This document shows, one piece after another, positions 1-41,402 of a stretch of DNA of 64,000 bases. Under the pieces are notes generated by a model. That model was not told the origin of the DNA, made no database searches, and worked only from the letters and a program-made list of their open reading frames with translations. Location: assembly GCF_058153355.1 (NCBI RefSeq), contig NZ_CM177019.1. The stretch is one strand, 5' to 3'. Each line of letters starts with the position of its first letter. Position 1 is the first letter of the stretch. A program made the position numbers and the translations under genes.

Positions 1-424
1 GAATACCGATGGTATAAACGAACAGGATCAGGCCAAATTCCTGAATAACATGCAGCATATCGCTACTTAATGTCATCCCCGCCTGAGAAACAAAATGGCC
101 GACGATGATCCCACCAAACAGCACGCCGCCAATACCTAATCCTATGCCGCGAAATTTGACGTTGCCGATAAACAAACCGACGACTGCCACCAAAGCCAGA
201 ATACTGACCGTTAATGCTATATCACTCATCGTCCATTTCTCTTGAGATAACATTTTAATTGCTACGGATTATGGCTGAATCGGTGAAGCAGATTTGCCTT
301 ATAGCGCACATTATCACGGGAAAGAACGTGCCGAAATATCTTAAACAGGCGAAATTTAACGCTTTGTTGAGTAAGAAAGACAAAAAAAGCCCCACCAGAA
401 TGGTGGGGCAAAGAGAATAGCTAG

Positions 425-853
425 TTAGCTATTTAACGCGGGACGTTCGCTGATAGCGATACGCTGCGCTGCGATGGGTTCAGGCTCATTACGAATTAAA
501 TCAATATGCAGTAAACCGTTTACGAAGGTTGCACCAGAGACTTCCATATTTTCAGCCAGCGTAAAGCTCAGGCTAAATGGCTGATTCATAAGCCCTTGAT
601 GCAGCCATTTTTTCTCTTCTTTTGGCTGCTCCGGCGTGCCTTTTACGCTCAGGCGCGTACCTTCCAGTTGAATATCTAAATCTTCCTGACGAAAACCTGC
701 CAGCGCAAGGGTAATGCGGTAGTGGTTATCGTCGCTTTTCTCAATGTTGTACGGCGGGAAGCTCTGGCTTTCACCGGCGTTTTGCAGTGCGTTGGCCAGT
801 TTGTCAAAACCGATCCATTGACGCATCAGTGGGGATAAATCGAAGTTACGCAT
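425..853 (-). CDS. ibpB: small heat shock protein IbpB
   Basis: Track ORF 425..892; protein from [13 protein letters not shown] to the C-terminus matches IbpB (142 aa). Start trimmed to the ATG at 851-853. Confidence 0.9.
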
Positions 854-964
854 AGTCATTTCTCCTTCTAAGAAGCGAGTAAGTACCTGCAAATCCGAAG
901 ATTCGCATATGCTCCCTGACGGCGAGCATGGAGATATCAGGCCGCGCCAGGCGGCCTTAGGGAA

Positions 965-1378
965 TTAGTTGATTTCGATACGGCGCGGTTTTTTCGCTTC
1001 CGGAATCACACGTTCGAGATCGATATACAGCAAACCATTTACCAGGTTAGCACCACGAACATGAATGTTCTCAGCTAACTGGAATTTGCGTTCAAAGTTG
1101 CGTTCAGCGATGCCCTGGTACAGATAGGTGCGTTCTTTTTGTTCGTCGGCATGAGCACCTTTCACCACCAACAGATTATCCTGGGCGGTAATTTCCAGTT
1201 CGCTCTCAGCAAAACCAGCCACAGCGATAGCAATGCGGTAATGGTTTTCGTCTACCAGTTCAACGTTATACGGAGGGTAGCCGCCATTACTCTGGCTCTG
1301 GTTGTTTTCTAAGTGGTTAAACAAACGGTCAAATCCAATAGCAGAACGGTAAAGCGGGGATAAATCAAAGTTACGCAT
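965..1378 (-). CDS. ibpA: small heat shock protein IbpA
   Basis: 137 aa ORF, alpha-crystallin-type sHSP paralogous to the adjacent ibpB; length matches IbpA. Confidence 0.92.
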
Positions 1379-1480
1379 AATAAATAGCTCCTGAAATCAG
1401 CGAGAATGTAAGACCTTCCACAATGGACAGGTCAGGTAGCCAGAACACCCATCAGGCGCGTCCTCATCGGCTACGATGTA

Positions 1481-1509
1481 AAAATGGGTCTGGAAATGCA
1501 CTTTTCAAG
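1481..1509 (-). promoter_or_regulatory. sigma32 (heat shock) promoter upstream of ibpA
   Basis: Minus strand reads CTTGAAA, 14 nt spacer, CCCATTTT, matching the sigma32 -35/-10 consensus, about 100 nt upstream of the ibpA start. Confidence 0.55.
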
Positions 1510-1683
1510 CCTTATCAGCGGACTTTTTTTTGCAGTTTATGGTCTATTGCATAGACTGAGGGGGCAGCACGAAACGTTAAAGTGCGATAGCCGCCACAGT
1601 GCGACGTAATGATGATGTTATTTTCAGCAAGGGATCGCTATAACTCATCAGGCCAACACCCACGATCAACAGATGAATTTATT

Positions 1684-2016
1684 ATGATAAGAAATGTGTT
1701 GTTAGCGTTCATGATATGCAGCGGAATGACATTACTCGGAGGATGCTCCAGCGTGATGTCCCATACCGGGGGAAAAGAAGGAACGTATCCCGGCACCCGC
1801 GCCAGCGCCACCATGATTGGCGACGATGAAACCAACTGGGGCACTAAGTCGCTGGCGATTCTCGATATGCCGTTTACCGCTGTGATGGACACGCTTTTAC
1901 TGCCGTGGGATGTGTTCCGCAAAGACAGCTCGGTGCGCTCACGCGTTGAAAAAAGCGAAGCCAACGCGCAAGCCACCAATGCGGTTATTCCACCGGCCAG
2001 AATGCCTGATAACTGA
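1684..2016 (+). CDS. yidQ: small lipoprotein YidQ
   Basis: Internal ATG of track ORF 1609..2016 gives a 110 aa protein with a lipobox (LLGGC); position between ibpA and yidR as in K-12. Confidence 0.8.
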   Translation: MIRNVLLAFMICSGMTLLGGCSSVMSHTGGKEGTYPGTRASATMIGDDETNWGTKSLAILDMPFTAVMDTLLLPWDVFRKDSSVRSRVEKSEANAQATNAVIPPARMPDN

Positions 2017-2017
2017 T

Positions 2018-3268
2018 TTAGCGATCAGTTTCGGTGATCCACAGCTGGCCGCCTTCCATCCACGCTAGCCATCGACCATCCGGCGAGAAGACCACGGCGT
2101 CCGCAGAAGGGGGATTGGCGTGGTTTTCGGTTAAATACTCAACCTCGCCGCTTTGCGCATGGGCGCAAGCAATTCGATTATCCAGCACAAAGCCCAACCA
2201 TTCTCCTGACGGATGCCAGTTAAATGCAGACTGAATATCCGTTTTGTTATGGGTTAACTGGCGCGGCTCGCCGCCCTGTGGCGAGATAAGCCACAGTTGC
2301 ACAATGCCGTTATCATCACGCATTAAAAACGCGATTTGCGTACCCTGCGGATTACAGCGCACCCAGTGGCGCGGGACGTTGACTAACCCCGGATAAGCCC
2401 GATGGTGGGTAAAGGTTAAACGTCGCTGCACGACGCCACGCGGTGGCGCGGGCAGGGTTGTTTCCGTTCCACTTAACGGCGCATCACCTGCTGCTTTCCA
2501 GCCAGCTTCATCTTGCGGTAACTCAACGATGAACAGCTCCGGCACTTTCTCGCCCTTTGGCGAAAGTGTGTCGCCAATAAACGCCAGCGCGTGGTTTCCT
2601 ACCCATCCTTCTTCATAAGCACGATTAATTTCATCACTGCCAGGCTGCGGCGTGGGCGTTGTTTTACTTACCAGTACGCACCAGTGGCTACCGCTGTATT
2701 CACGCGGATGCTGCTTTTGTACGTTGACCGGGCCAAACGGTACCGCAACACTGACGTTGCGCAAATCCAGCGCCGGATCGCGTTCATGCATCACATGGTC
2801 GTTATAGGTAAAGCTCACCATTACACCGTTCGGGCTAAAGACATGTACATGGCTGCCGCCACGCAGCGCCCCTGGCGTATACGGCGCGGTAATATCCATT
2901 GCATCAAGGTTGCTCATCTTGCCGTCTTCAACAATCACGCCTCGACGGTGATGGAAATCGTAATGCCATGTTTCATCAGGATTTTCAGGTCCGTGGATAA
3001 AGACATATTTCTCTGACTTCGGATGAACGGTCACCACGCCGACGTGTGCGCCCTGTGACGCACGGTAGATAACCTCGACCTCACCGGTATGAATATTCAC
3101 ACGTTCAATAGTTTCGCCGGTAAACGACGCCCCAGAAGGACGCACGTCAAATACCAGCCACTGGCTGTCGGGCGTCCAGGTATTGGTATTAGTGAGCAGG
3201 TGATTACGGGGAGCAAAGGTTATCTGTTTCATGGCGTGGTCCTGATACAAAACGGTTTCCGCAATCAT
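2018..3268 (-). CDS. yidR: YidR, beta-propeller-like protein of unknown function
   Basis: 416 aa ORF in the conserved position. An internal ATG at 3232 has a better Shine-Dalgarno (AGGA) and may be the true start. Confidence 0.8.
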   Translation of the reverse strand: MIAETVLYQDHAMKQITFAPRNHLLTNTNTWTPDSQWLVFDVRPSGASFTGETIERVNIHTGEVEVIYRASQGAHVGVVTVHPKSEKYVFIHGPENPDETWHYDFHHRRGVIVEDGKMSNLDAMDITAPYTPGALRGGSHVHVFSPNGVMVSFTYNDHVMHERDPALDLRNVSVAVPFGPVNVQKQHPREYSGSHWCVLVSKTTPTPQPGSDEINRAYEEGWVGNHALAFIGDTLSPKGEKVPELFIVELPQDEAGWKAAGDAPLSGTETTLPAPPRGVVQRRLTFTHHRAYPGLVNVPRHWVRCNPQGTQIAFLMRDDNGIVQLWLISPQGGEPRQLTHNKTDIQSAFNWHPSGEWLGFVLDNRIACAHAQSGEVEYLTENHANPPSADAVVFSPDGRWLAWMEGGQLWITETDR

Positions 3269-3332
3269 ACTTCACAAGGACTTCACTTTCAGACAATAGT
3301 CTTTTGCCATCGTGATGAATGTGAGTGAAAAG

Positions 3333-4433
3333 ATGGAACATTTCGACGTGGCGATTATTGGCCTCGGCCCGGCAGGGTCGGCGTTGGCGCGAAAGTTAGC
3401 AGGCAAAATGCAGGTGATCGCGCTGGATAAAAAGCACCAGTGCGGTACTGAAGGTTTCAACAAGCCTTGCGGCGGTCTGCTGGCACCGGACGCTCAGCGA
3501 TCTTTTATTCGCGATGGACTGACGCTTCCTGTCGATGTGATCGCCAATCCGCAGATTTTCAGCGTCAAAACCGTCGACGTCGCCGCATCGCTTACACGTA
3601 ACTACCAGCGAAGCTATATCAATATTAATCGCCATGCTTTCGACTTATGGATGAAATCGCTGATCCCCGCCAGCGTTGAGGTTTACCACGATAGCCTGTG
3701 CCGGAAAATCTGGCGCGAGGATGATAAATGGCATGTCATTTTTCGCGCAGACGGCTGGGAGCAACACATTACCGCCCGCTATCTGGTCGGTGCCGATGGT
3801 GCAAACTCGATGGTGCGGCGACATCTCTACCCGGATCATCAGATTCGTAAATATGTTGCTATCCAGCAGTGGTTCGCAGAGAAACATCCGGTGCCGTTCT
3901 ACTCCTGCATCTTTGATAATGCGATAACTGACTGTTATTCATGGAGTATCAGCAAAGACGGTTATTTTATCTTTGGCGGTGCCTATCCAATGAAAGACGG
4001 CCAGGCGCGCTTCACGGCGCTAAAAGAGAAAATGAGCGCCTTTCAGTTCCAGTTTGGTAAGGCGGTAAAAAGCGAAAAATGCACGGTGCTGTTTCCCTCA
4101 CGCTGGCAGGATTTTGTCTGCGGTAAGGACAACGCCTTTCTGATTGGTGAAGCGGCGGGATTTATCAGCGCCAGCTCGCTGGAGGGGATTAGCTATGCGC
4201 TGGATAGTGCAGAGATTCTGCGTTCGCTGTTACTGAAGCAGCCGGAGAAGAGCAACGCCGCTTACTGGCGCGCCACCCGCAAACTGCGTTTAAAACTCTT
4301 CGGCAAAATAGTAAAAAGCCGATGCCTGACCGCACCGGCTTTAAGAAAATGGATTATGCGCAGTGGTGTGGCGCATATTCCACAGTTTAAAGATTATCCA
4401 ACGCGCTTCACATCGCCCACCAGCAGGATGTAA
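3333..4433 (+). CDS. cbrA: FAD-dependent oxidoreductase CbrA (YidS)
   Basis: N-terminal Rossmann motif [14 protein letters not shown]. Track ORF starts at 3312 (GTG); start is uncertain between 3312, 3315 and 3333. 3' end overlaps convergent dgoT. Confidence 0.8.
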
Positions 4434-5686
4434 GAGAGCGCGCCAATCAACGCGACGGCGGAGATATAAACCAGTGCAGGCGCGAAACCGTAACCCTGCG
4501 CCAGGTACCCCACCACCAGCGGAACGGTGATGCCGCCCAGACCACCGGCGAAGTTAAACACGCCGCCGGTTAAACCAATCAGCCGCATCGGTGCCAGAGA
4601 AGAGACTAACGACCAGGTAATCGAAGCAAAACCGTTGCCGAAGAATGCCAGCGCCATCAGGCACATAATCATCATCGGATCGTTGGTGTAGTTAGCACCC
4701 ATAATGCAGGTGGAGATCAGCAAACCGCAGATAATCGGCGTTTTACGCGCAAAGCCCAGTGAAAAGCCCTTACGTACCAGCAGATCCGCGACCCAGCCAG
4801 AGAGCAGGACGCCGACAAACGCCGCAAGGAAAGGCACCGTGGTCATAAAGCCCGCTTTCAACGCCGTGATGCCTTTTTCCTGGGTTAAATAGTTCGGGAA
4901 CCAGGTTAAGAAGAACCACAGTGTAGAAGCCACCGCAAATTGCCCAAGATAGACGCCGATCAGTTTACGATGGAACACCAGTTTCCAGTCTTTGGCTGTT
5001 AGCGGCTGACGCGACTCTTTTTTCACTGGCGCATCGCCATCCACCAGACCGCCGCCGTCACGAATGTAATCCAGTTCAGCTTTGCTAATGCCTTTGGTCA
5101 GGCGCGGCGGCTGATAAACCTTAAACCAAATCAGCGACCAGATAATGCCGATACCGCCGGTGACAATGAACACCCAGTGCCAGCTCAACATTTCCTGAAT
5201 CCAGATCAGCAGCGGAGTCAGAAACGCCAGACCGACAAACTGACCAGACGTATAAAAACCCACGGCAGAAGCGCGTTCATGTTCCGGGAACCAGCTGGTC
5301 ACCATCCGGTTATTGGTCGGGAACGCGGGCGCTTCGAAAATACCGGTTATCGCACGCAGACCAATTAATGACATTAAGCCCGTGGCAAAGCCCTGGAATA
5401 ACGTCGCCACTGACCAGCCAAATATCGCAATAAAATAAGTCACGCGAGAACCTACGCGATCTAAAAACCAACCGCCGGGGATCTGACATAAGGTATAAAG
5501 CCAGGCGAAGGCCGAAAATACATAGCCCATTTGCGCTTTGGTAATGCCGAACTCTTCCTGAATATGGGCGGAAGCCACGGCCAGGTTAGCGCGGTCAACA
5601 TAACAAATGACCACCGTAATAAAGATCATCACCAGCGTCAGATAACGCCGACGCCCCGGTTTTGCTGCATTAACGGGAATATCCAT
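4394..5686 (-). CDS. dgoT: D-galactonate:H+ symporter DgoT (MFS)
   Basis: 430 aa from [15 protein letters not shown] matches DgoT; track ORF is extended 15 codons upstream. Confidence 0.92.
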
Positions 5687-5805
5687 AGCGAGCTTTCTCC
5701 AGATTTTGGGCATAGCGAAGCCGCTCACCATGCCCTGTAATGTACAGAGGGTTATATTTTTGTATTGCTGTTTTAGTGCCCGATGAGGGGCTTACGTGGC
5801 AGGAA

Positions 5806-5956
5806 TTACCACTCTGCTACGCTGTTATCTTCATGACGCCAGAGCGGATTACGCCAGTCCGGGGCATTTTTACTGAACTCAATGACTTTGGCTTCGTCGA
5901 TTTCTACGCCTAAGCCCGGTTTCGTTAATGGTTTAAAGAAGCCGCCGACCATGCTG
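5806..5956 (-). pseudogene. dgoD: 3' fragment of dgoD (D-galactonate dehydratase), truncated by IS4
   Basis: Last ~49 codons ([27 protein letters not shown]...NSVAEW) match the DgoD C-terminus; reading frame runs directly into the IS4 end at 5957. Confidence 0.7.
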
Positions 5957-7382
5957 TAATGCCAGTCAGTTAAGCAACTGACTGGCTCTTTTTCGGGGCT
6001 GTGGGGTATTTCCAGGGCCTCTCCTTTACCACTCTCGGGAAGGCCCTTTCCCTTCTTGTCGGTAATTTCACAAGTTGTCCCATACTTGCAAGATCGCGCA
6101 TCAGCTCCGGTATACGTCCCGGTGAAGCGCCCTGCAATGTCATCAGCATTCTCATCACCATTCCGCATGATTCTGAGAAACTCAGTTGATTCGGCCAGTA
6201 ACCTTTCAGATGTTCCGCCATTTTAATCATCTGATATCTCACCAGATTATAAGCCAGTAAGACACCCCACAGCTCTTGCTCCACAAGCTCCGGCTTTTTA
6301 CTTCTCAGCGTCAGCCTGCTCAGTTGCATCGTCTGTTTTATCTCCCTGTATCCCAGTTCGATTTCCCAGCGATGACTGTACAGATCCGCCATTTCTCCTC
6401 CGGGGAAGCGCATGGCGTCCGTCATCGACGTCAGCAGATGGCAGACTTTTCCTTTGCGCGTCACGGTCAGCAGGCGGGCTGTCACTTCATTTCCCAGTCC
6501 CGGCCACTTTTTTCGTGCCTGCGGGCTGGTTTTCAGCTTCACCAGATGATCGCCTTTACCCAGTTTTCTGATCTCTTCATATTGCGCTCCCTTTCTGAGA
6601 GGTATCATCCAGTGGCGGTGTTCTCCCGCCAGGCTCCAGGCATTTAACAGTCCCAGTGAGTAATAACCTTTATCCATTAACGTCAGAGTGTTATCGCCGG
6701 TTTGTTCTATAAGTTGCTCAGCAAGCTCATTTTCGCTGTTCTTCATCGTGCCGAAGGCTGCAGCCGTCAGCAGATGGCTGGTCAGTTCCATCTGGCAGAC
6801 CATTTTGACCTGCGGGTAGAGCGCCGGGTTCCCGGCATGTGTCTGGCGGGGGAAGGCTGCATCGTTCTCTGGTGTATCCGGTGTGCGCCAGAACACACCA
6901 TCGATGGCCAGCAGGGTCAGGCCGCACCAGTGCGGATGCGGCGTGGCGTTATGCCAGAGCTGCGCTGTTTTCGTGAACACGCGGCGGACAGCCTCACTTC
7001 CCAGGCGCTGGCGGGCCTGAATAACGGCACTGGGGGCAACGAAGGGGCGATTGCCCGGCAGCATGATGTCCAGGCGATTCACAATCTGGTGAAGAGGTTC
7101 TTTACGCTCAAGCGCCATGCCAACAATACACCAGACCATCATTTCGAGGGGAAGACGGCGCTTGCGTAGCGTTACAGTACCTGATTCGGCAAGGCAACGA
7201 GAGATGAGTTCGGGGTCGAGGTAATCCCCCAGAGAAGTCAGTGGGTTACGCAGAGAATCGTAACGGGATACCAGATCAAGAGCCTGTCCAATGTGCATAA
7301 AAAAATCCGGAAACAAGTGAGCGTTTCCGGATTCTTACACAGCCACTGGATCGGTCAACTGATCCTTAACTGATCGGCATTA
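5957..7382 (-). mobile_element. IS4 insertion sequence, complete (1426 bp)
   Basis: Terminal inverted repeats TAATGCCAGTCAGTTAAG (5957-5974) and reverse complement of TAATGCCGATCAGTTAAG (7365-7382); single transposase ORF inside; length equals canonical IS4. Confidence 0.92.
5970..7298 (-). CDS. insG: IS4 transposase
   Basis: 442 aa from [20 protein letters not shown] matches the IS4 transposase (DDE family); track ORF 5970..7316 has 6 extra N-terminal codons. Confidence 0.88.
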
Positions 7383-7490
7383 GGCCAAATCGGTCCCGTT
7401 TTTTTTCGCCTTTATTTCGGAGAAGTGTCCAGAGGGGCAAGGGGATTCGGGGGAGTATAATTTCGCCATTCAGAAAGAATGGAAAGAATA

Positions 7491-8017
7491 ATGCAAAACA
7501 GAAAATGGATTTTGACCTCGCTGATAATGACTTTTTTCGGCATCCCCATACTGGCGCAATTACCAACTGGCGCACGGTTGGCGGTAACGATCAGGAGATC
7601 CAGACCTGGCAACGCCCGGAAGACTCTGGCAGCCAGACAGTGATGCAATCGCAGGTCATGAAAAATGTCCGCATGATCTCGCCGCAGGAAACCGAAGTGG
7701 CAAGCATGATGGAGGGAATGATTAAAGTTGTTGCCGAATACCGTAATACAAACAACTCAATAGGCTACACCTTCCGCTATTACGCAACACAAATGAACGC
7801 CGATAAAAATATAAAACTGCTAGCTATTAACGGTATTGCACCGACTGCGGAAAATATTCGTAACGGCAAATATCCGTATATCGTCGATGCCTTTATGGTA
7901 ACGCGGGAAAATACTACGTCAGAAACACAAAAACTGGTCGAATGGTTTTTAACGCCGCAGGGGCAGAGTCTGGTGGAAGATGTGGGCTATGTGCCGCTGT
8001 ATCCAACAATGAAATAA
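7491..8017 (+). pseudogene. yzgL: yzgL-like internally deleted PstS-like binding-protein gene
   Basis: ATG at 7491 encodes a signal-peptide-like start (MQNRKWILTSLIMTFFGIPILA) that runs out of frame after ~50 codons. Frame +2 (track ORF 7505..8017) encodes only the C-terminal half of a protein paralogous to the downstream 330 aa lipoprotein. Confidence 0.6.
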
Positions 8018-8042: not shown

Positions 8043-9035
8043 ATGAATAAATTCACCGGTGTTTTACTATTAGGTACGGCGTTACTGGCGGGATGTGTCG
8101 ACCGGGAAGGGTACTATAACAGCGTCAGGGAAGAAGAGAGTCATGGACTGACGTCTCTGCGGGGGCAACCTGAATTACGTTACAGCGATGATTGGTCAAG
8201 ATGGCCGAGAGTGTACGGCGCTACAGCCTTATACCCGCTGTATGCCTCCGCGTATTATGAATTAGTACCCGAGCCAAAAGATAAGGATCGAACCTCGCTG
8301 GCCTGGCAGGCGTATGGTTTGCAACAAACCCGAACAGCTGAAGCCTACGATAGTCTGATCAAGGGTACCGCGACGGTTATTTTTGTTGCACAACCGTCGG
8401 AAGGACAGAAAAAACGTGCAGAAGAAGCAGGCGTTAAACTGAAATATACCGCGTTTGCCCGCGAAGCCTTTGTCTTTATCGTTGATATCAAAAACCCGGT
8501 TAATTCACTTAGCGAACAGCAAGTCAAAGACATTTTTAGCGGTAAAGTGAGTCGCTGGAATAAAGTGGGCGGCGGTGACGAAAGTATAAAAGTCTGGCAG
8601 CGGCCAGAAGATTCTGGAAGCCAAACGGTTATGAAGGGACTGGTTATGCAAGATACTCCAATGCTGCCAGCCAAAAAATCCACTGTTATCGATCTTATGG
8701 GCGGTTTAATTACCGAAGTCGCCGACTACCAAAACACACCATCTTCCATTGGATACACCTTCCACTATTACGTCACACGTATGAATGACAATATGCTCAA
8801 AATGCGCAAACAGATCAAACTGCTGGCTATAAATGGCGTTGCACCTACAGAGGAAAATATCCGTAACGGCACTTATCCGTACATAATTGATGCTTATATG
8901 GTGACGCACGAAAACCCTACGCTGGAAACGCAGAAATTCGTCGACTGGTTTTTAAGCCCGCAGGGACAGCAATTGGTAGAGGATGTGGGGTATGTGCCGA
9001 TTCATGACGCATCATACGAATCATCAGTGCAATAA
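8043..9035 (+). CDS. putative lipoprotein with PstS/phosphate-binding-protein-like domain
   Basis: 330 aa ORF with Shine-Dalgarno AAGGA, lipobox LLAGC, and C-terminal half about 60% identical by eye to the upstream pseudogene. Family assignment is by motif impression only. Confidence 0.7.
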   Translation: MNKFTGVLLLGTALLAGCVDREGYYNSVREEESHGLTSLRGQPELRYSDDWSRWPRVYGATALYPLYASAYYELVPEPKDKDRTSLAWQAYGLQQTRTAEAYDSLIKGTATVIFVAQPSEGQKKRAEEAGVKLKYTAFAREAFVFIVDIKNPVNSLSEQQVKDIFSGKVSRWNKVGGGDESIKVWQRPEDSGSQTVMKGLVMQDTPMLPAKKSTVIDLMGGLITEVADYQNTPSSIGYTFHYYVTRMNDNMLKMRKQIKLLAINGVAPTEENIRNGTYPYIIDAYMVTHENPTLETQKFVDWFLSPQGQQLVEDVGYVPIHDASYESSVQ

Positions 9036-9637
9036 TGATGAATAAAATCAGACTTTATATTCCTCCGTTAATTCTTGGTTTTGTTATTGTGCCGTTGTTG
9101 GTGTGGCCGACGGTGGTTGCGCTGGCTGCTTCTGTTATCACGCTGAGTTTTCTGGGAGAGATACTGTTCTCTATCCCGCTCATGATCAGGCATATTTCGC
9201 TTCTGCAATTACAACTATGGTTATCGGCTGAATATGCGCTTTTCTGCTGTGCAATGGTGGGCGTTGGTTGGCAATTTGCTCGTATAACTCAATCCGAATC
9301 GAAAAGCAGACTGCATTGTTGGCTGGTATTTGCACCAGTTTATTTCTGGTTGCTCCTGTGGAATATCATTTTCTATGTCGCGCCAGCGAATATTGCGTTG
9401 CTGGAGAATATGCGCAGTTTCTTTCTGACAGTTGTCTGGCTCCCACTGAATTTTTCGCCATTTTGGTCTCAACCGTGGATTGACTTTGTCGGTCCAATAA
9501 GCGCACAGCTTGGTTTTGCGTTGGGATATTATTGCCAGTGGCGTAGCAAAAATAGAAGCCAGATACGGAAGTGGAGTGAGTGGGGAACGTGCCTGAGTTT
9601 TGTTACGTTGGGTATGATGGCGTGGGCTTTGCGGTAA
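9035..9637 (+). CDS. polytopic inner-membrane protein of unknown function
   Basis: 200 aa ORF whose start overlaps the upstream stop (TAATG), implying translational coupling; several hydrophobic segments rich in W/F/L. Confidence 0.6.
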   Translation: MMNKIRLYIPPLILGFVIVPLLVWPTVVALAASVITLSFLGEILFSIPLMIRHISLLQLQLWLSAEYALFCCAMVGVGWQFARITQSESKSRLHCWLVFAPVYFWLLLWNIIFYVAPANIALLENMRSFFLTVVWLPLNFSPFWSQPWIDFVGPISAQLGFALGYYCQWRSKNRSQIRKWSEWGTCLSFVTLGMMAWALR

Positions 9638-9689
9638 TTCCCTGACTTAAAAAGTAGGTCAGATTGTTGACAAAGTGCGCTTTGTTCAT

Positions 9690-9798
9690 GCCGGATGCGA
9701 CATGAACGTCTTATTGGCCTACAAGACCATGCAAATTCAATATATTGCATAAGCCACGTAGGCCTGATAAGCGTAGCGCATCAGGCAGTTTTTTGTTT
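9690..9798. repeat. REP / BIME-like palindromic units
   Basis: gccggatgcgacatgaacgtcttattggcctac and gtaggcctgataagcgtagcgcatcaggcag resemble the E. coli REP consensus, located 3' of glpD. Confidence 0.5.
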
Positions 9799-9849
9799 AT
9801 CATCAGTCGCAGGTCAGATTGAAATCTGACCCGGCCACCTTACGTTAAT

Positions 9850-11355
9850 TTACGACGCCAGCGACAACCTCTGCTGCGTATACTCCCCCAGCCACTGACT
9901 CACACGGGATTGTTGCTGCGCATTCAGCCACATGCCTTGTTTTGTGCGACGCCACAGGGCATCGTCGGCGCGGCGGACCCATTCGTGATCCACAAGGTAT
10001 TTCAGCTCCGCTTCGTAGAACTCATGACCGAAATCTTCCCCGAGATCGCCTATCGCCCCCGCATTGCCGAGCAGCAGCTCGCTGTTGCTGCCGTAAGTGC
10101 GCGCGTAGTGACGTGCCAGCGATTCAGTCAGGAACGGATAACGGCGGCGCAAGCGAGCGGCATAATCGTCGCGGTCGCCCTCGATGGCACCACCCGGCAG
10201 CACGCTCTCTTTCGTCCACGCCGGGCCAATGCCCTGATAATACGGCGTCAGTTTTTCCAGCGCGTGCTCCGCCAGTTTGCGGTAGGTGGTCAGCTTACCG
10301 CCGAATACCGATAACAGCGGAGCTTTGCCGTTTTCATCATGGATATCGAGCGTGTAATCACGGGTAATGGCCTGCGGCGAATCGGACTCATCATCACACA
10401 GTGGACGCACGCCGGAGTAGGTCCAGACGATATCATCCCGGCTTAGCGGCTTTTTAAAGTGCGCGTTATACACTTTCAGCAGGTAATTGATTTCACTCTC
10501 TTCAATCTTCACCGCTTTCGGATCGCCTTTATACTCCACATCGGTGGTGCCGATAATGGAAAACTCGTCCATCCACGGGATCACGAAGACAATACGTTTA
10601 TCTTCGTTTTGCAGAATGTAGGCTTGCTTCTGGGTATGCACACGCGGCACGACAATATGGCTGCCTTTGATCAGGCGAATGCCATAAGGTGAGGGTAGAT
10701 GCATACCGTCGTCGAAGAACTGCTTCACCCACGGGCCGGTGGCGTTCACGAGGCCGCGCGCTTGCCAGCTATATTTTTTGCCGGTATCGATATCTTCCGC
10801 TTCCACAATCCACAGGCCGTTTTCGCGGCGAGCAGAAGTGGCACGAGTACGGGTAAGCACTTCACCGCCTTTACGCACCACCATCTGGGCGTTGGCGAGT
10901 ACCAGACGGGCGTCGTCTACCCAACAGTCGGAATATTCGAATCCGCGCTTAATTTCCGGTTTTAACACTGAATTTGCGCCAAAACGCAAACCGGTTGATC
11001 CCGGCAGGCTGGTGCGTTTACCCAGATGATCGTACATAAACAGACCAATACGGATCATCCACGCCGGACGCAGACGCGGGCGATGCGGCAGGCGAAAACG
11101 CATCGGGAAAGCGATATGGGGAGCCATTTTCAGCAACACTTCACGTTCAGCCAGCGCCTCGCTGACCAGGCGGAATTCATAGTGCTCAAGGTAGCGCAGG
11201 CCACCATGAATGAGTTTTGAACTGGCGGAAGAGGTCGCACAAGCGAGATCCTGCGCCTCCAGCATCAGCACGGATAAACCGCGTCCAGCGGCGTCTGCCG
11301 CGATACCAGCACCATTGATGCCGCCACCTATCACAATCAGATCTTTGGTTTCCAT
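9850..11355 (-). CDS. glpD: aerobic glycerol-3-phosphate dehydrogenase
   Basis: 501 aa from METKDLIVIGGGINGAGIAADAAGRG (FAD-binding motif); track ORF is extended 5 codons. Confidence 0.94.
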   Translation of the reverse strand: METKDLIVIGGGINGAGIAADAAGRGLSVLMLEAQDLACATSSASSKLIHGGLRYLEHYEFRLVSEALAEREVLLKMAPHIAFPMRFRLPHRPRLRPAWMIRIGLFMYDHLGKRTSLPGSTGLRFGANSVLKPEIKRGFEYSDCWVDDARLVLANAQMVVRKGGEVLTRTRATSARRENGLWIVEAEDIDTGKKYSWQARGLVNATGPWVKQFFDDGMHLPSPYGIRLIKGSHIVVPRVHTQKQAYILQNEDKRIVFVIPWMDEFSIIGTTDVEYKGDPKAVKIEESEINYLLKVYNAHFKKPLSRDDIVWTYSGVRPLCDDESDSPQAITRDYTLDIHDENGKAPLLSVFGGKLTTYRKLAEHALEKLTPYYQGIGPAWTKESVLPGGAIEGDRDDYAARLRRRYPFLTESLARHYARTYGSNSELLLGNAGAIGDLGEDFGHEFYEAELKYLVDHEWVRRADDALWRRTKQGMWLNAQQQSRVSQWLGEYTQQRLSLAS

Positions 11356-11388
11356 GCTGCCCTCATTCACTTTCGTTAAAGCTCATAA

Positions 11389-17569: not shown

Positions 17570-20281
<2,712 letters not shown>

Positions 20282-38804: not shown

Positions 38805-38927
38805 CACTCAGTATCTACTGAATGAATACGGTTTCAGACATCGGCACCATACGAAGTAAAGTGTACTGTAAGCTGATTGCAGGCTAGCGTATCCTGATTA
38901 GTAAAAGCACACTAAAGGAATAGCTTG

Positions 38928-40211
38928 ATGCAACTTACCAACGAAGAACAAGTACAGATTGCTCGTATAAAAGAAAAAATCCCACGCATTGCCGCACTGG
39001 ATCCTGAATGTAAGTTATTCGGTTCTGAAGGTTGGAAATATCAATGGCCGAAGCCTGCCAGCGAGGCGGAAATAGCTTCCTGGGAGAAAAAACATAGCGT
39101 CACTTTGCCACGGGAATATCGAATTTTTCTTCGCTATATCGCTAATGGCGGTCCGGCACATGCCTACGGTCTTGAATCTTTAGGCGGTACAGATATTTAT
39201 GGCGATATAACAAAAGAAAGCCCTGTACCGCTTTATATGACGCAGCAGGATGTTGATGTGTTGAATGCAGGCCGTACAGAAGATGATGAAGAATATAGTT
39301 TTTTTGACGGCGCATTGACCATTCTCACCCTGGGATGTACTTATGATATTTGCCTGGTGGTGACGGGGCAGTATCGCGGAAGGTTAATGCTGACTGATGG
39401 TGATGAAGATTATCCGTTTGATTTTATATATGATAAAAATTTCCTCAACTGGTATGAACGCTGGCTGGACGATTTTATTGCTGGCATGAGTATGAAGGGT
39501 TTCGATAGAAGTTTGCCAGGAACGCAAATTCAACTGCGTGAGTGGTTTTTAACTGAGAAAATCCCGGATTTACGTAGATCCATTTTATTCTCGCTATGCC
39601 GTTTTCCACAGATAGAACCCGAAACATTTGCCCTTTGGGAACATGTTTGCCGCACAGAGAATGATAAAGAATTGTGTGAAGAGGCATTCATAAGATTACG
39701 CCAAAAAAAAGTTTCTTGTGCTGCAGATATTTTTCGACTCTATTTTACAATGCCAGATGAATTACGTGATATTGCTATTAAAGATCTCCGTTTTGCCTGT
39801 AGAGATAGTGTGGTGAATATTGAGGATTATATTCATTCACTGTTAATAATAATGCCTGAACTTGACGATGACACTCTATCCTCAGCTGTCTTTGCTGTAC
39901 GAGAAACAGAGTATAATAAATATGATACTTTTCTGCCGCTTCTCGAACGTATCACTGATGACCGTCAGCAAACATTATTGTGGGCGATGAGTAAGGCGCC
40001 TGATTTCAATGAAAGCCGAGGATTCGTTGAGTTGGTATTACCGCTTTTTGCATCATCAAAGATGGAGAATGTAAGGAAGGCTATTTTGTTGCTCATTGAA
40101 GTTAAAGATAATCGTATTCCACCATTGGTTGATGAAGCTGCAACTCGTTTCCCTGAACTGACCATTTTACGAGAAAACTACTATCTCAGGACGTGGGGAC
40201 ATAAGCCATAA
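38928..40211 (+). CDS. SMI1/KNR4 (SUKH-1)-like protein with C-terminal helical extension; putative immunity-type protein
   Basis: 427 aa from the ATG at 38928 with Shine-Dalgarno AAGGA. N-terminal motif EIASWEKKHSVTLPREYRIFLRYIANGG matches the LPxxYxxFLxxxNGG hallmark of the SUKH family. Visibly AT-rich; no counterpart at this site in K-12. Confidence 0.65.
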   Translation: MQLTNEEQVQIARIKEKIPRIAALDPECKLFGSEGWKYQWPKPASEAEIASWEKKHSVTLPREYRIFLRYIANGGPAHAYGLESLGGTDIYGDITKESPVPLYMTQQDVDVLNAGRTEDDEEYSFFDGALTILTLGCTYDICLVVTGQYRGRLMLTDGDEDYPFDFIYDKNFLNWYERWLDDFIAGMSMKGFDRSLPGTQIQLREWFLTEKIPDLRRSILFSLCRFPQIEPETFALWEHVCRTENDKELCEEAFIRLRQKKVSCAADIFRLYFTMPDELRDIAIKDLRFACRDSVVNIEDYIHSLLIIMPELDDDTLSSAVFAVRETEYNKYDTFLPLLERITDDRQQTLLWAMSKAPDFNESRGFVELVLPLFASSKMENVRKAILLLIEVKDNRIPPLVDEAATRFPELTILRENYYLRTWGHKP

Positions 40212-40248
40212 ATTAATGGCTCAGAAATGATCTAACGCGGAGAGAAAT

Positions 40249-40779
40249 ATGATCAGGGAACATATTCAGCAAGCGATAAATAATAGGTTAGCATTTGATG
40301 GCCCATTCAATGTTGTTCCTGAACCTGCAAGCACTGCGTTTGATAGCCGGATCCCGACATTGAAAAACGGTGTCTGGCAGAAGGCCAGCCCTATGTTGCA
40401 GGCGCGTTTTGCACATTGTGGACGTTGGTTAAGCGCTACACATGGAAGCTGGCTAAGTATAAGTGACATGGAAACGCTTTGGCAGGAACACATAGAAGAT
40501 ACGTTTCTTGATGAAATCAAAATGAATGCTGTAGCTTCAAGTGATAATTGGGATAACCATGCCTTGGGACTATTTCGTTCTCATCGCCTGTCACTTTTTG
40601 CCGGTAGTGATTACATTTATGAAATGGTTTTTCTCCTTTGGCTAGATAGTACCGTTGAGCCAGAGGTCTGGGTTTATGACTGCAATGGGGAATCACGTTA
40701 TAAAGATCTTAATGATTACCTGAATGCATATATTAATGATGACGTAAGCGCCTGTGAGCGCTCCTGGCGAGTAGAATGA
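40249..40779 (+). CDS. hypothetical protein (island gene 2)
   Basis: 176 aa ORF with Shine-Dalgarno GGAGAG; AT-rich; stop overlaps the next start (ATGA). No family recognised. Confidence 0.55.
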   Translation: MIREHIQQAINNRLAFDGPFNVVPEPASTAFDSRIPTLKNGVWQKASPMLQARFAHCGRWLSATHGSWLSISDMETLWQEHIEDTFLDEIKMNAVASSDNWDNHALGLFRSHRLSLFAGSDYIYEMVFLLWLDSTVEPEVWVYDCNGESRYKDLNDYLNAYINDDVSACERSWRVE

Positions 40780-41402
40780 ATAGCCCCCCTTGCCCCTTTG
40801 ATCCACAAACCGCACATTACCTCGGTACAGTGCAAATCCACTACACCTCAACCACCTTCAACGCTGCCGTTAAGCATTATACCTATCACATTAAAAAGCG
40901 TTTTAAAGGGTTTAAATGGGGAATTGGTACCGCTGGCTTATTGGCTATATTGCCCATGATCCCACAATGGTTGAAACCTTCTCATGACTTTAAACTCAAC
41001 GCAATCAGTACGTTAATTCTTCTATTAATGTTGCCACTCCTCTTATCAATGTTCCTGTTAATCAGCAGAAGAATTAACGATTTTAAGTCAAAAACAAAGC
41101 AAGTTACTTTTACGAAACCCGTGCGTTATGCGTTTTATTTCGAGGGGATTGTTTTTTATGAATCTCATCAGCAGGGCATACTTCGCTGGGAAGATTTTTA
41201 TAGCATTGACTATGAAGAAGATTATTTGTGGCTTTTTCTGCATTTACCGAAGAGTTTTCCCAGAGAAGCGACGAAAGCGTTTTGCGATATTTTCATTCCC
41301 GCCAGCGCGATAAAAGCGCAGCCTGAACTGGATACGTTTTTTCGTGAAACACGCCACTATCTGGATTATCTGTTTGTCCCGTTTAATTCTGACAGAAAAT
41401 AA
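40776..41402 (+). CDS. hypothetical membrane protein, two predicted TM helices (YcxB-like topology)
   Basis: 208 aa; hydrophobic segments WGIGTAGLLAILPMIPQWL and ISTLILLLMLPLLLSMFLLI followed by a ~100 aa soluble domain; translationally coupled to island gene 2. Confidence 0.55.
   Translation: MNSPPCPFDPQTAHYLGTVQIHYTSTTFNAAVKHYTYHIKKRFKGFKWGIGTAGLLAILPMIPQWLKPSHDFKLNAISTLILLLMLPLLLSMFLLISRRINDFKSKTKQVTFTKPVRYAFYFEGIVFYESHQQGILRWEDFYSIDYEEDYLWLFLHLPKSFPREATKAFCDIFIPASAIKAQPELDTFFRETRHYLDYLFVPFNSDRK

Follow-up and report, generated by a model that had tools for sequence, protein, structure and literature searches.

In the window, as we call the whole stretch of 64,000 nucleotides of E. coli DNA that was analysed, a complete IS4 element joins the truncated end of the dgoD gene to the region that normally follows glgP, and we consider it probable (roughly 0.65) that this arrangement is a real inversion, brought about by two inverted IS4 copies recombining with each other; events of this kind are known. 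The junction was found in none of the GTDB representative genomes and in 0 of 5426 complete E. coli genomes. Although the arrangement is therefore absent from the latter, it is not new in kind; IS-bounded inversions are textbook examples. The analysis accounts for the lack of a target-site duplication around this IS4 and predicts that the dgo operon of the clone is split and non-functional. The features on which the argument is based are the following:

4394-5686, minus strand: dgoT, encoding the D-galactonate transporter (430 aa, start codon ATG at 5686), collinear with R32_14_1F and K-12 dgoT
5806-5956, minus strand: 3' remnant of dgoD, 151 nt, with the last 49 codons, the stop codon and one base of the preceding codon
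5945-5956: presumed left duplication copy, ccgaccatgctg, from an IS4 insertion into dgoD; its true length may be 11-14 bp
5957-7382, minus strand: complete IS4 of 1426 bp; its imperfect inverted repeats, 18 bp each, are located at 5957-5974 and 7365-7382
5973-7298, minus strand: IS4 transposase gene, intact, 442 aa from the ATG at 7298 or 448 aa from the TTG at 7316
7383-7395: right flank, ggccaaatcggtc, duplication copy of the insertion at the glgP terminator, followed by ccgTTTTTTTT
7491-8017, plus strand: what remains of the first PstS-family (yzgL-like) gene, the reading frame of which is shifted by an internal deletion of 979 bp at 7552-7561

Geometry of the proposed rearrangement

When the window was compared by BLAST with R32_14_1F, the closest collinear complete genome, two blocks only were obtained, and both break exactly at the ends of the IS4. 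The first block (1-5956, 98.3% identity) is collinear throughout in the order ibpB-ibpA-yidQ-yidR-cbrA-dgoT-dgoD'. The second (7383-64000, 98.6-98.9% identity) is collinear with the region from directly after glgP to trpS and contains the yzgL-like genes, glpD, glpEGR and the rtc, mal, feo, ompR, pckA and aroKB genes. In K-12 MG1655 the break sites are separated by 308 kb, and in R32_14_1F, the nearest relative of the window, by 341 kb. The orientation of the blocks is opposite, the left one following the K-12 order in ascending and the right one in descending direction. No further IS and no further breakpoint was detected within the 64-kb window.

The GC skew amounts to -0.020 left of the IS4 (1-5956) and to +0.041 right of it (7383-64000). 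Such a switch of sign at the junction would fit a reversal, on one of the sides, of the direction in which the DNA used to be replicated. With oriC near 3.93 Mb on the K-12 map, an inversion between the two sites would sit wholly on one replichore.

An original prediction, which had been made by inspection of the window, was correct in its coordinates, its gene names and the approximately 49 codons of dgoD that it recognized, as judged from the BLAST of the window and the profile NCBIfam NF010624. It had also described the IS4 as complete, 1426 bp long and devoid of a target-site duplication, and had placed the two neighbourhoods about 0.3 Mb apart in K-12. Inspection of the flanks bore out the former, no repeat of 8-14 bp being present, and the K-12 comparison, with its 308 kb and opposite orientation, agrees with the latter.

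The IS4 element

The element in the window is a canonical IS4. Its terminal inverted repeats of 18 bp (TAATGCCAGTCAGTTAAG / CTTAACTGATCGGCATTA) match at 16 of 18 positions, and its transposase reaches 304 bits against the NCBIfam profile NF033592 (IS4 family transposase, cut-off 115), with the full profile being covered. In addition, the Pfam domains Nterm_IS4 and DDE_Tnp_1 are matched by a product identical to this transposase. The IS4 subgroup has been defined by a size of 1400-1650 bp and by terminal inverted repeats of the -AATR- type (PMC2266710, Table 1); with 1426 bp, ends reading TAATGCC... and a single unframeshifted DDE transposase of the IS4 type, the element of the window falls into this subgroup.

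Compared with five other E. coli copies of IS4, the element shows 2-9 differences in 1426 nt, and it is 99% identical to IS4-like elements that are annotated in thousands of E. coli records. The 442-aa transposase represents a common IS4 allele, the exact product of which is found in 6926 blocks of the collection, and since it is the commonest allele its use as a marker of the clone was dropped. A mosaic structure inside the IS4 was also considered as evidence for a crossover and was dropped because the copies are too similar (2-9 differing positions).

Missing duplication and target sites of IS4

A simple insertion of IS4 is accompanied by a direct repeat of 10-13 bp on both sides (De Palmenaer et al. 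2008, PMC2266710), and a duplication of 11-14 bp was indeed present around 14 of 14 other IS4 copies that had been extracted from E. coli loci. The copy of the window resembles such a simple insertion in the element as such, in both ends and the transposase, and in the target-arm pattern of each flank. It differs, however, in that it lacks the direct repeat and in that its flanks stem from different insertions: across the left (...gccgccgaccatgctg) and the right flank (ggccaaatcggtcccg) no direct repeat of 8-14 bp exists. The missing duplication is a property of the history of this copy and not of the IS4 element. As transposition within the IS4 family is of the cut-and-paste type (PMC2266710), a copy without a duplication requires a secondary event.

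The 14 duplication-flanked copies, which include ten loci of the NCTC assembly GCA_900448835.1 (L029-L038), obtained by way of the common transposase allele, as well as the loci L003 and L025, display a common target geometry, namely an A-run, 3-4 nt, the duplicated 11-14 nt, another 3-4 nt and a T-run. Most of these 14 targets resemble the hairpins of intrinsic terminators and directly follow genes such as adhE, eno, rpoD and degS; IS4 tends to land where coding sequence suffers little. The strong preference for such hairpins, composed of an A-run, a stem and a T-run, leads to identical positions, e.g. the glgP terminator, being hit in unrelated strains, and IS4 copies at shared positions are ready-made recombination partners, as in strain XH988 described below.

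Both flanks of the IS4 in the window are halves of genuine but different IS4 target sites, suggesting two normal insertions whose flanks were exchanged later and not an illegitimate one-ended event.

The dgoD side

The remnant of dgoD aligns to positions 17806-17956 of locus L006, which contains an intact dgoD, and its residues 335-382 correspond to positions 336-382 of 382 in the galactonate dehydratase profile NCBIfam NF010624. The intact site in L006 reads tttAAAGAAG-ccg-[ccgaccatgctg]-aagt-CTTCTTTattttt, with inverted arms that are 19 nt apart, and this is the geometry of the 14 duplication-flanked IS4 copies. The left break of the window lies exactly where a 12-bp duplication would end in the intact dgoD, and from the geometry of the intact site a second copy of this duplication is predicted. 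The similarity of the dgoD flank to an IS4 target was also evident from a BLAST alignment with the IS4 downstream of eno in strain PK6, which extended 28 nt into the flank.

Among the 5426 complete E. coli genomes none carries an IS4 at this site, and the exact 430-aa DgoT allele of the window occurs in many E. coli contigs, where it is accompanied by an intact dgoD. The insertion into dgoD is therefore specific to the clone from which the window originates. In the arrangement of the window, dgoT is severed from the promoter-proximal part of the operon, dgoR-K-A-D. With dgoD interrupted and dgoT deprived of its promoter, a loss of D-galactonate use is predicted, and this applies under the assumption of an inversion and of a simple insertion alike.

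The 48-aa ORF encoding the C-terminus of DgoD was tried as a marker of the junction and was rejected, as it occurs in 331 blocks and the ten listed places are due to frameshifts in error-prone assemblies or to IS1 and not to IS4. A 120-aa hybrid ORF has no occurrence in the collection. In other E. coli strains an IS1 is inserted in dgoD (L003, 12108-14033; L008, approximately 8221-10147), leaving a 3' remnant of about 150-190 nt and lying within about 40 nt of the IS4 break of the window. It seems that dgoD has repeatedly been struck by insertion sequences.

The glgP side

The empty site at the glgP terminator is found in R32_14_1F (L004, approximately 7990-8015), where it reads ...aaaaaatagaacgg / ggccaaatcggtcccgtttttttt. 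In 18 of the 5426 complete E. coli genomes an IS4 occupies precisely the nucleotide position of the right junction of the window, with its orientation also unchanged, and for 17 of these 18 the match coordinates place the IS4 between glgP and the yzgL-like gene. In two of these genomes the sequence was followed through the IS4, and duplications were present, GGCCAAAGGGTC (12 bp) in N25 and GCCAAAGGGTC (11 bp) in PK8568. As the two differ in length, IS4 has probably inserted at this nucleotide independently at least twice. The terminator hairpin of glgP is a recurrent hotspot of IS4.

The 979-bp deletion in the first yzgL-like gene is located between two copies of TGGCGCAATT and leaves a pseudogene. 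The same deletion is found in contigs of the same clone (L007, L026). The yzgL gene of K-12 is likewise a remnant of this gene cluster, but a different and larger one.

Junctions in other sequences of the clone

The clone can be recognized by its specific alleles of RtcR and YidR, each of which is present in five contigs of a large assembly collection that are labelled E. coli. Contigs with the YidR allele are at most 47 kb and those with the RtcR allele at most 92 kb long, and they end at the IS4. Logan contigs from the runs SRR8656992 and SRR31441161 start 25 nt inside one end of the IS4 and continue into dgoD' and dgoT; a second Logan contig from SRR8656992 starts 28 nt inside the other end and continues into the yzgL-like genes. 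In the NCBI assembly GCA_043012465.1, the contig ends lie within 3-6 nt of the two junctions. Identity to the window is 100% for the Logan contigs and for the NCBI contig on the dgoD side, and the NCBI contig on the yzgL side (L007) shows 2 mismatches in 17.7 kb. The sequences of both the dgoD/IS4 and the IS4/yzgL junction are real and occur in separately accessioned runs of the same clone.

In this clone the IS4 is a multicopy repeat, as all of the short-read contigs break at it. The linkage dgoD'-IS4-yzgL is spanned by the contig of the window alone, all related short-read contigs being interrupted there. A Shigella origin of the window was considered and rejected on the grounds that only one IS is present in 64 kb and that the clone-specific proteins are labelled E. 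coli.

Comparison with known rearrangements

A precedent is provided by the complete genome of XH988 (NZ_CP019355.1), in which an inversion of about 103 kb is bounded by two IS4 copies, one site being the glgP terminator and the other treF/yhjB. The copies are located at approximately 220.4-221.9 kb and 323.2-324.7 kb (L040, L041), and the glgP/IS4 junction lies about 103 kb from the IS4/yzgL junction on the opposite strand. In detail, one copy is arranged as treF...CTTCAGGAGGAG/IS4/GGCCAAAGGGTC...yzgL and the other as glgP...GGCCAAAGGGTC/IS4/CTTCAGGAGGAG...yhjB. The 12-bp sequences GGCCAAAGGGTC and CTTCAGGAGGAG are thus exchanged between the two copies, which is the swapped-duplication signature. 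XH988 shares with the window the same IS4 insertion at the glgP terminator, the same logic of orientation and an IS4 that has no duplication of its own but one half of each target. It differs in the partner site, which is the treF/yhjB intergenic region instead of dgoD, and in the size of the segment (about 103 kb versus about 0.3 Mb). Furthermore, both junctions are visible in the complete genome of XH988, whereas the case of the window is known from one junction.

Large inversions bounded by IS elements have reportedly also arisen in the long-term evolution experiment. For IS26, inversions by replicative intramolecular transposition are said to occur. These resemble the model proposed here in that two inverted IS copies bound the inverted segment and the target duplication is split between them; they differ, however, in that the transposase has to be replicative and to form cointegrates, and IS4 is not expected to have such an enzyme.

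Homologous recombination between inverted IS copies has been documented in E. coli (Lee et al. 2016, PMC5009759). As proposed for the window, an IS of 1-1.5 kb serves as portable homology, inverted copies yield an inversion with one IS at each end and no new junctions are formed; unlike in the window, the IS elements involved in the reported cases are mostly IS1, IS5 and IS150. In the mutation-accumulation lines of that study no recombination event of IS4 was recorded, IS4 being single-copy there (PMC5009759).

Proposed inversion and alternatives

In the inversion that we favour, one IS4 would have inserted into the terminator hairpin just downstream of glgP, in the clone or in its ancestors, and another one into an IS4-type target inside dgoD. 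The two copies would have pointed in opposite directions on one replichore, at a distance of about 0.31-0.34 Mb, and RecA-type homologous recombination between these 1.4-kb sequences would have inverted the segment between them. The IS4 of the window would then be one of the two recombinant copies, with its flank on the dgoD side derived from one parent and its flank on the yzgL side from the other, and it would lack a duplication because its flanks come from two parent insertions. The partner copy would be expected to have the structure glgP...ggccaaatcggtc/IS4/(c)cgaccatgctg-aagtcttc...dgoD 5' part-dgoA-dgoK-dgoR, with the junction reading in full glgP...aacggggccaaatcggtc/TAATGCCAGTCAG...CTGATCGGCATTA/(c)cgaccatgctgaagtcttctttatt...dgoD 5' part, dgoA, dgoK, dgoR. 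We infer that this second IS4 copy exists at the reciprocal junction, that the two copies recombined and that the two flanks are physically linked through the IS4 in this genome.

Of what is expected of an inversion by homologous recombination, the following is found in the window: the flanks come from two distant loci in opposite orientation, the breaks are exactly at the ends of the IS4, and either flank represents half of a genuine IS4 target. The reciprocal junction was searched for as a DNA pattern, CAGCATGGTCG-N(0-2)-TAATGCCGATCAGTTAAG, which had no match in the contigs of representative genomes, a collection without the genome of the window. Thirteen exact look-ups gave no hit; they used DgoD(1-331...337) either as such or extended by the predicted tail NADQLRIS or VMPIS. 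A search with a 42-aa junction peptide yielded short DgoD fragments only, none of them with the tail. Little weight attaches to these negative results, since the DgoD alleles of different strains vary at 1-4 residues.

Recombination between IS copies neither creates nor removes junctions between IS and flank (PMC5009759). A true inversion and an assembly mis-join would consequently give an identical sequence here, so that even the reciprocal junction in the same assembly could not separate them, and spanning reads or amplicons are needed; the IS4 junction of the window is therefore flagged as a spot at which the assembly deserves a check with long reads.

The original prediction of an IS4-IS4 recombination that gave rise to an inversion has thus gained the half-sites, the geometry and the precedent of XH988 in its favour, while its reciprocal junction was not found in our searches and a mis-join would have the same sequence. 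Its alternative of an assembly chimera at the repeat stands, for this very reason (PMC5009759), as an explanation that we regard as unlikely. In that case two simple, duplication-flanked insertions (dgoD'-IS4-dgoD 5' part and glgP-IS4-yzgL) would exist in the clone and the wrong flanks would have been threaded through the repeat. Given the orientation of the IS4 copies, such a wrong join would appear structurally flawless. Inversion between IS copies yields no junction that a mis-join would lack (PMC5009759), and the independent short-read contigs of the clone all stop at the edges of the multicopy IS4. On the other hand, a contig that runs through a multicopy IS of 1.4 kb usually rests on long reads, which are probably rarely mis-joined at such short repeats, and XH988 demonstrates that real inversions of exactly the same kind exist in nature; for these reasons the inversion is favoured.

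A more complex history with three or more IS4 copies, in which successive inversions or a translocation took place, would leave the junction of the window real and give glgP a partner other than the dgoD 5' part. It would be in line with the multicopy state of IS4 in the clone, with the up to 24-26 matching places per genome in some E. coli, most of which are IS4 copies, and with the absence of the predicted reciprocal products from the exact look-ups. Nothing specific points to it, however, the failed look-ups are explained by the variation of DgoD alleles between strains, and one inversion explains the data most simply and is not without precedent, so that we regard the complex history as quite improbable.

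IS26, IS1 and Tn3 are able to duplicate themselves and to invert adjacent DNA by intramolecular replicative transposition. In a one-step event of this type, the IS4 at the glgP terminator would have attacked dgoD with duplication of itself and inversion; an intramolecular transposition had also been put forward in the original prediction. The end product would be identical in sequence to that of the two-step model, but the event is highly improbable, as the IS4-family elements studied move by cut-and-paste without being duplicated (PMC2266710) and as IS4 rarely moves in E. coli: of 758 insertions that arose in mutation-accumulation lines, 8 were due to IS4 (PMC5009759).

Returning to the inversion by homologous recombination, it would have consequences beyond the dgo operon. 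Several hundred genes would be reversed relative to replication, and we tentatively suggest, without great confidence, that a rare natural clone represented by at least two runs stably carries an IS4-bounded inversion of about 0.3 Mb on one replichore near oriC by which D-galactonate catabolism is abolished. Against an inversion it counts that an intra-replichore inversion of 0.3 Mb reverses many genes with respect to replication and is usually selected against. If true, the case would, together with XH988, make the IS4 hotspot at the glgP terminator a recurrent and possibly reversible pivot for chromosome inversions.

Other features of the window

Between envZ and pckA, which are adjacent in K-12 with a distance of 75 nt, three ORFs (428, 176 and 208 aa) are located at 38925-41402 of the window. 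None of the three was matched by an NCBIfam profile; in R32_14_1F they are annotated as an SMI1/KNR4 family protein and two hypothetical proteins. The short-read contig L026 of the same clone stops at approximately 9697, between the end of a 200-aa ORF at 9637 and glpD (9850-11370), suggesting a small repeated intergenic element at this position.
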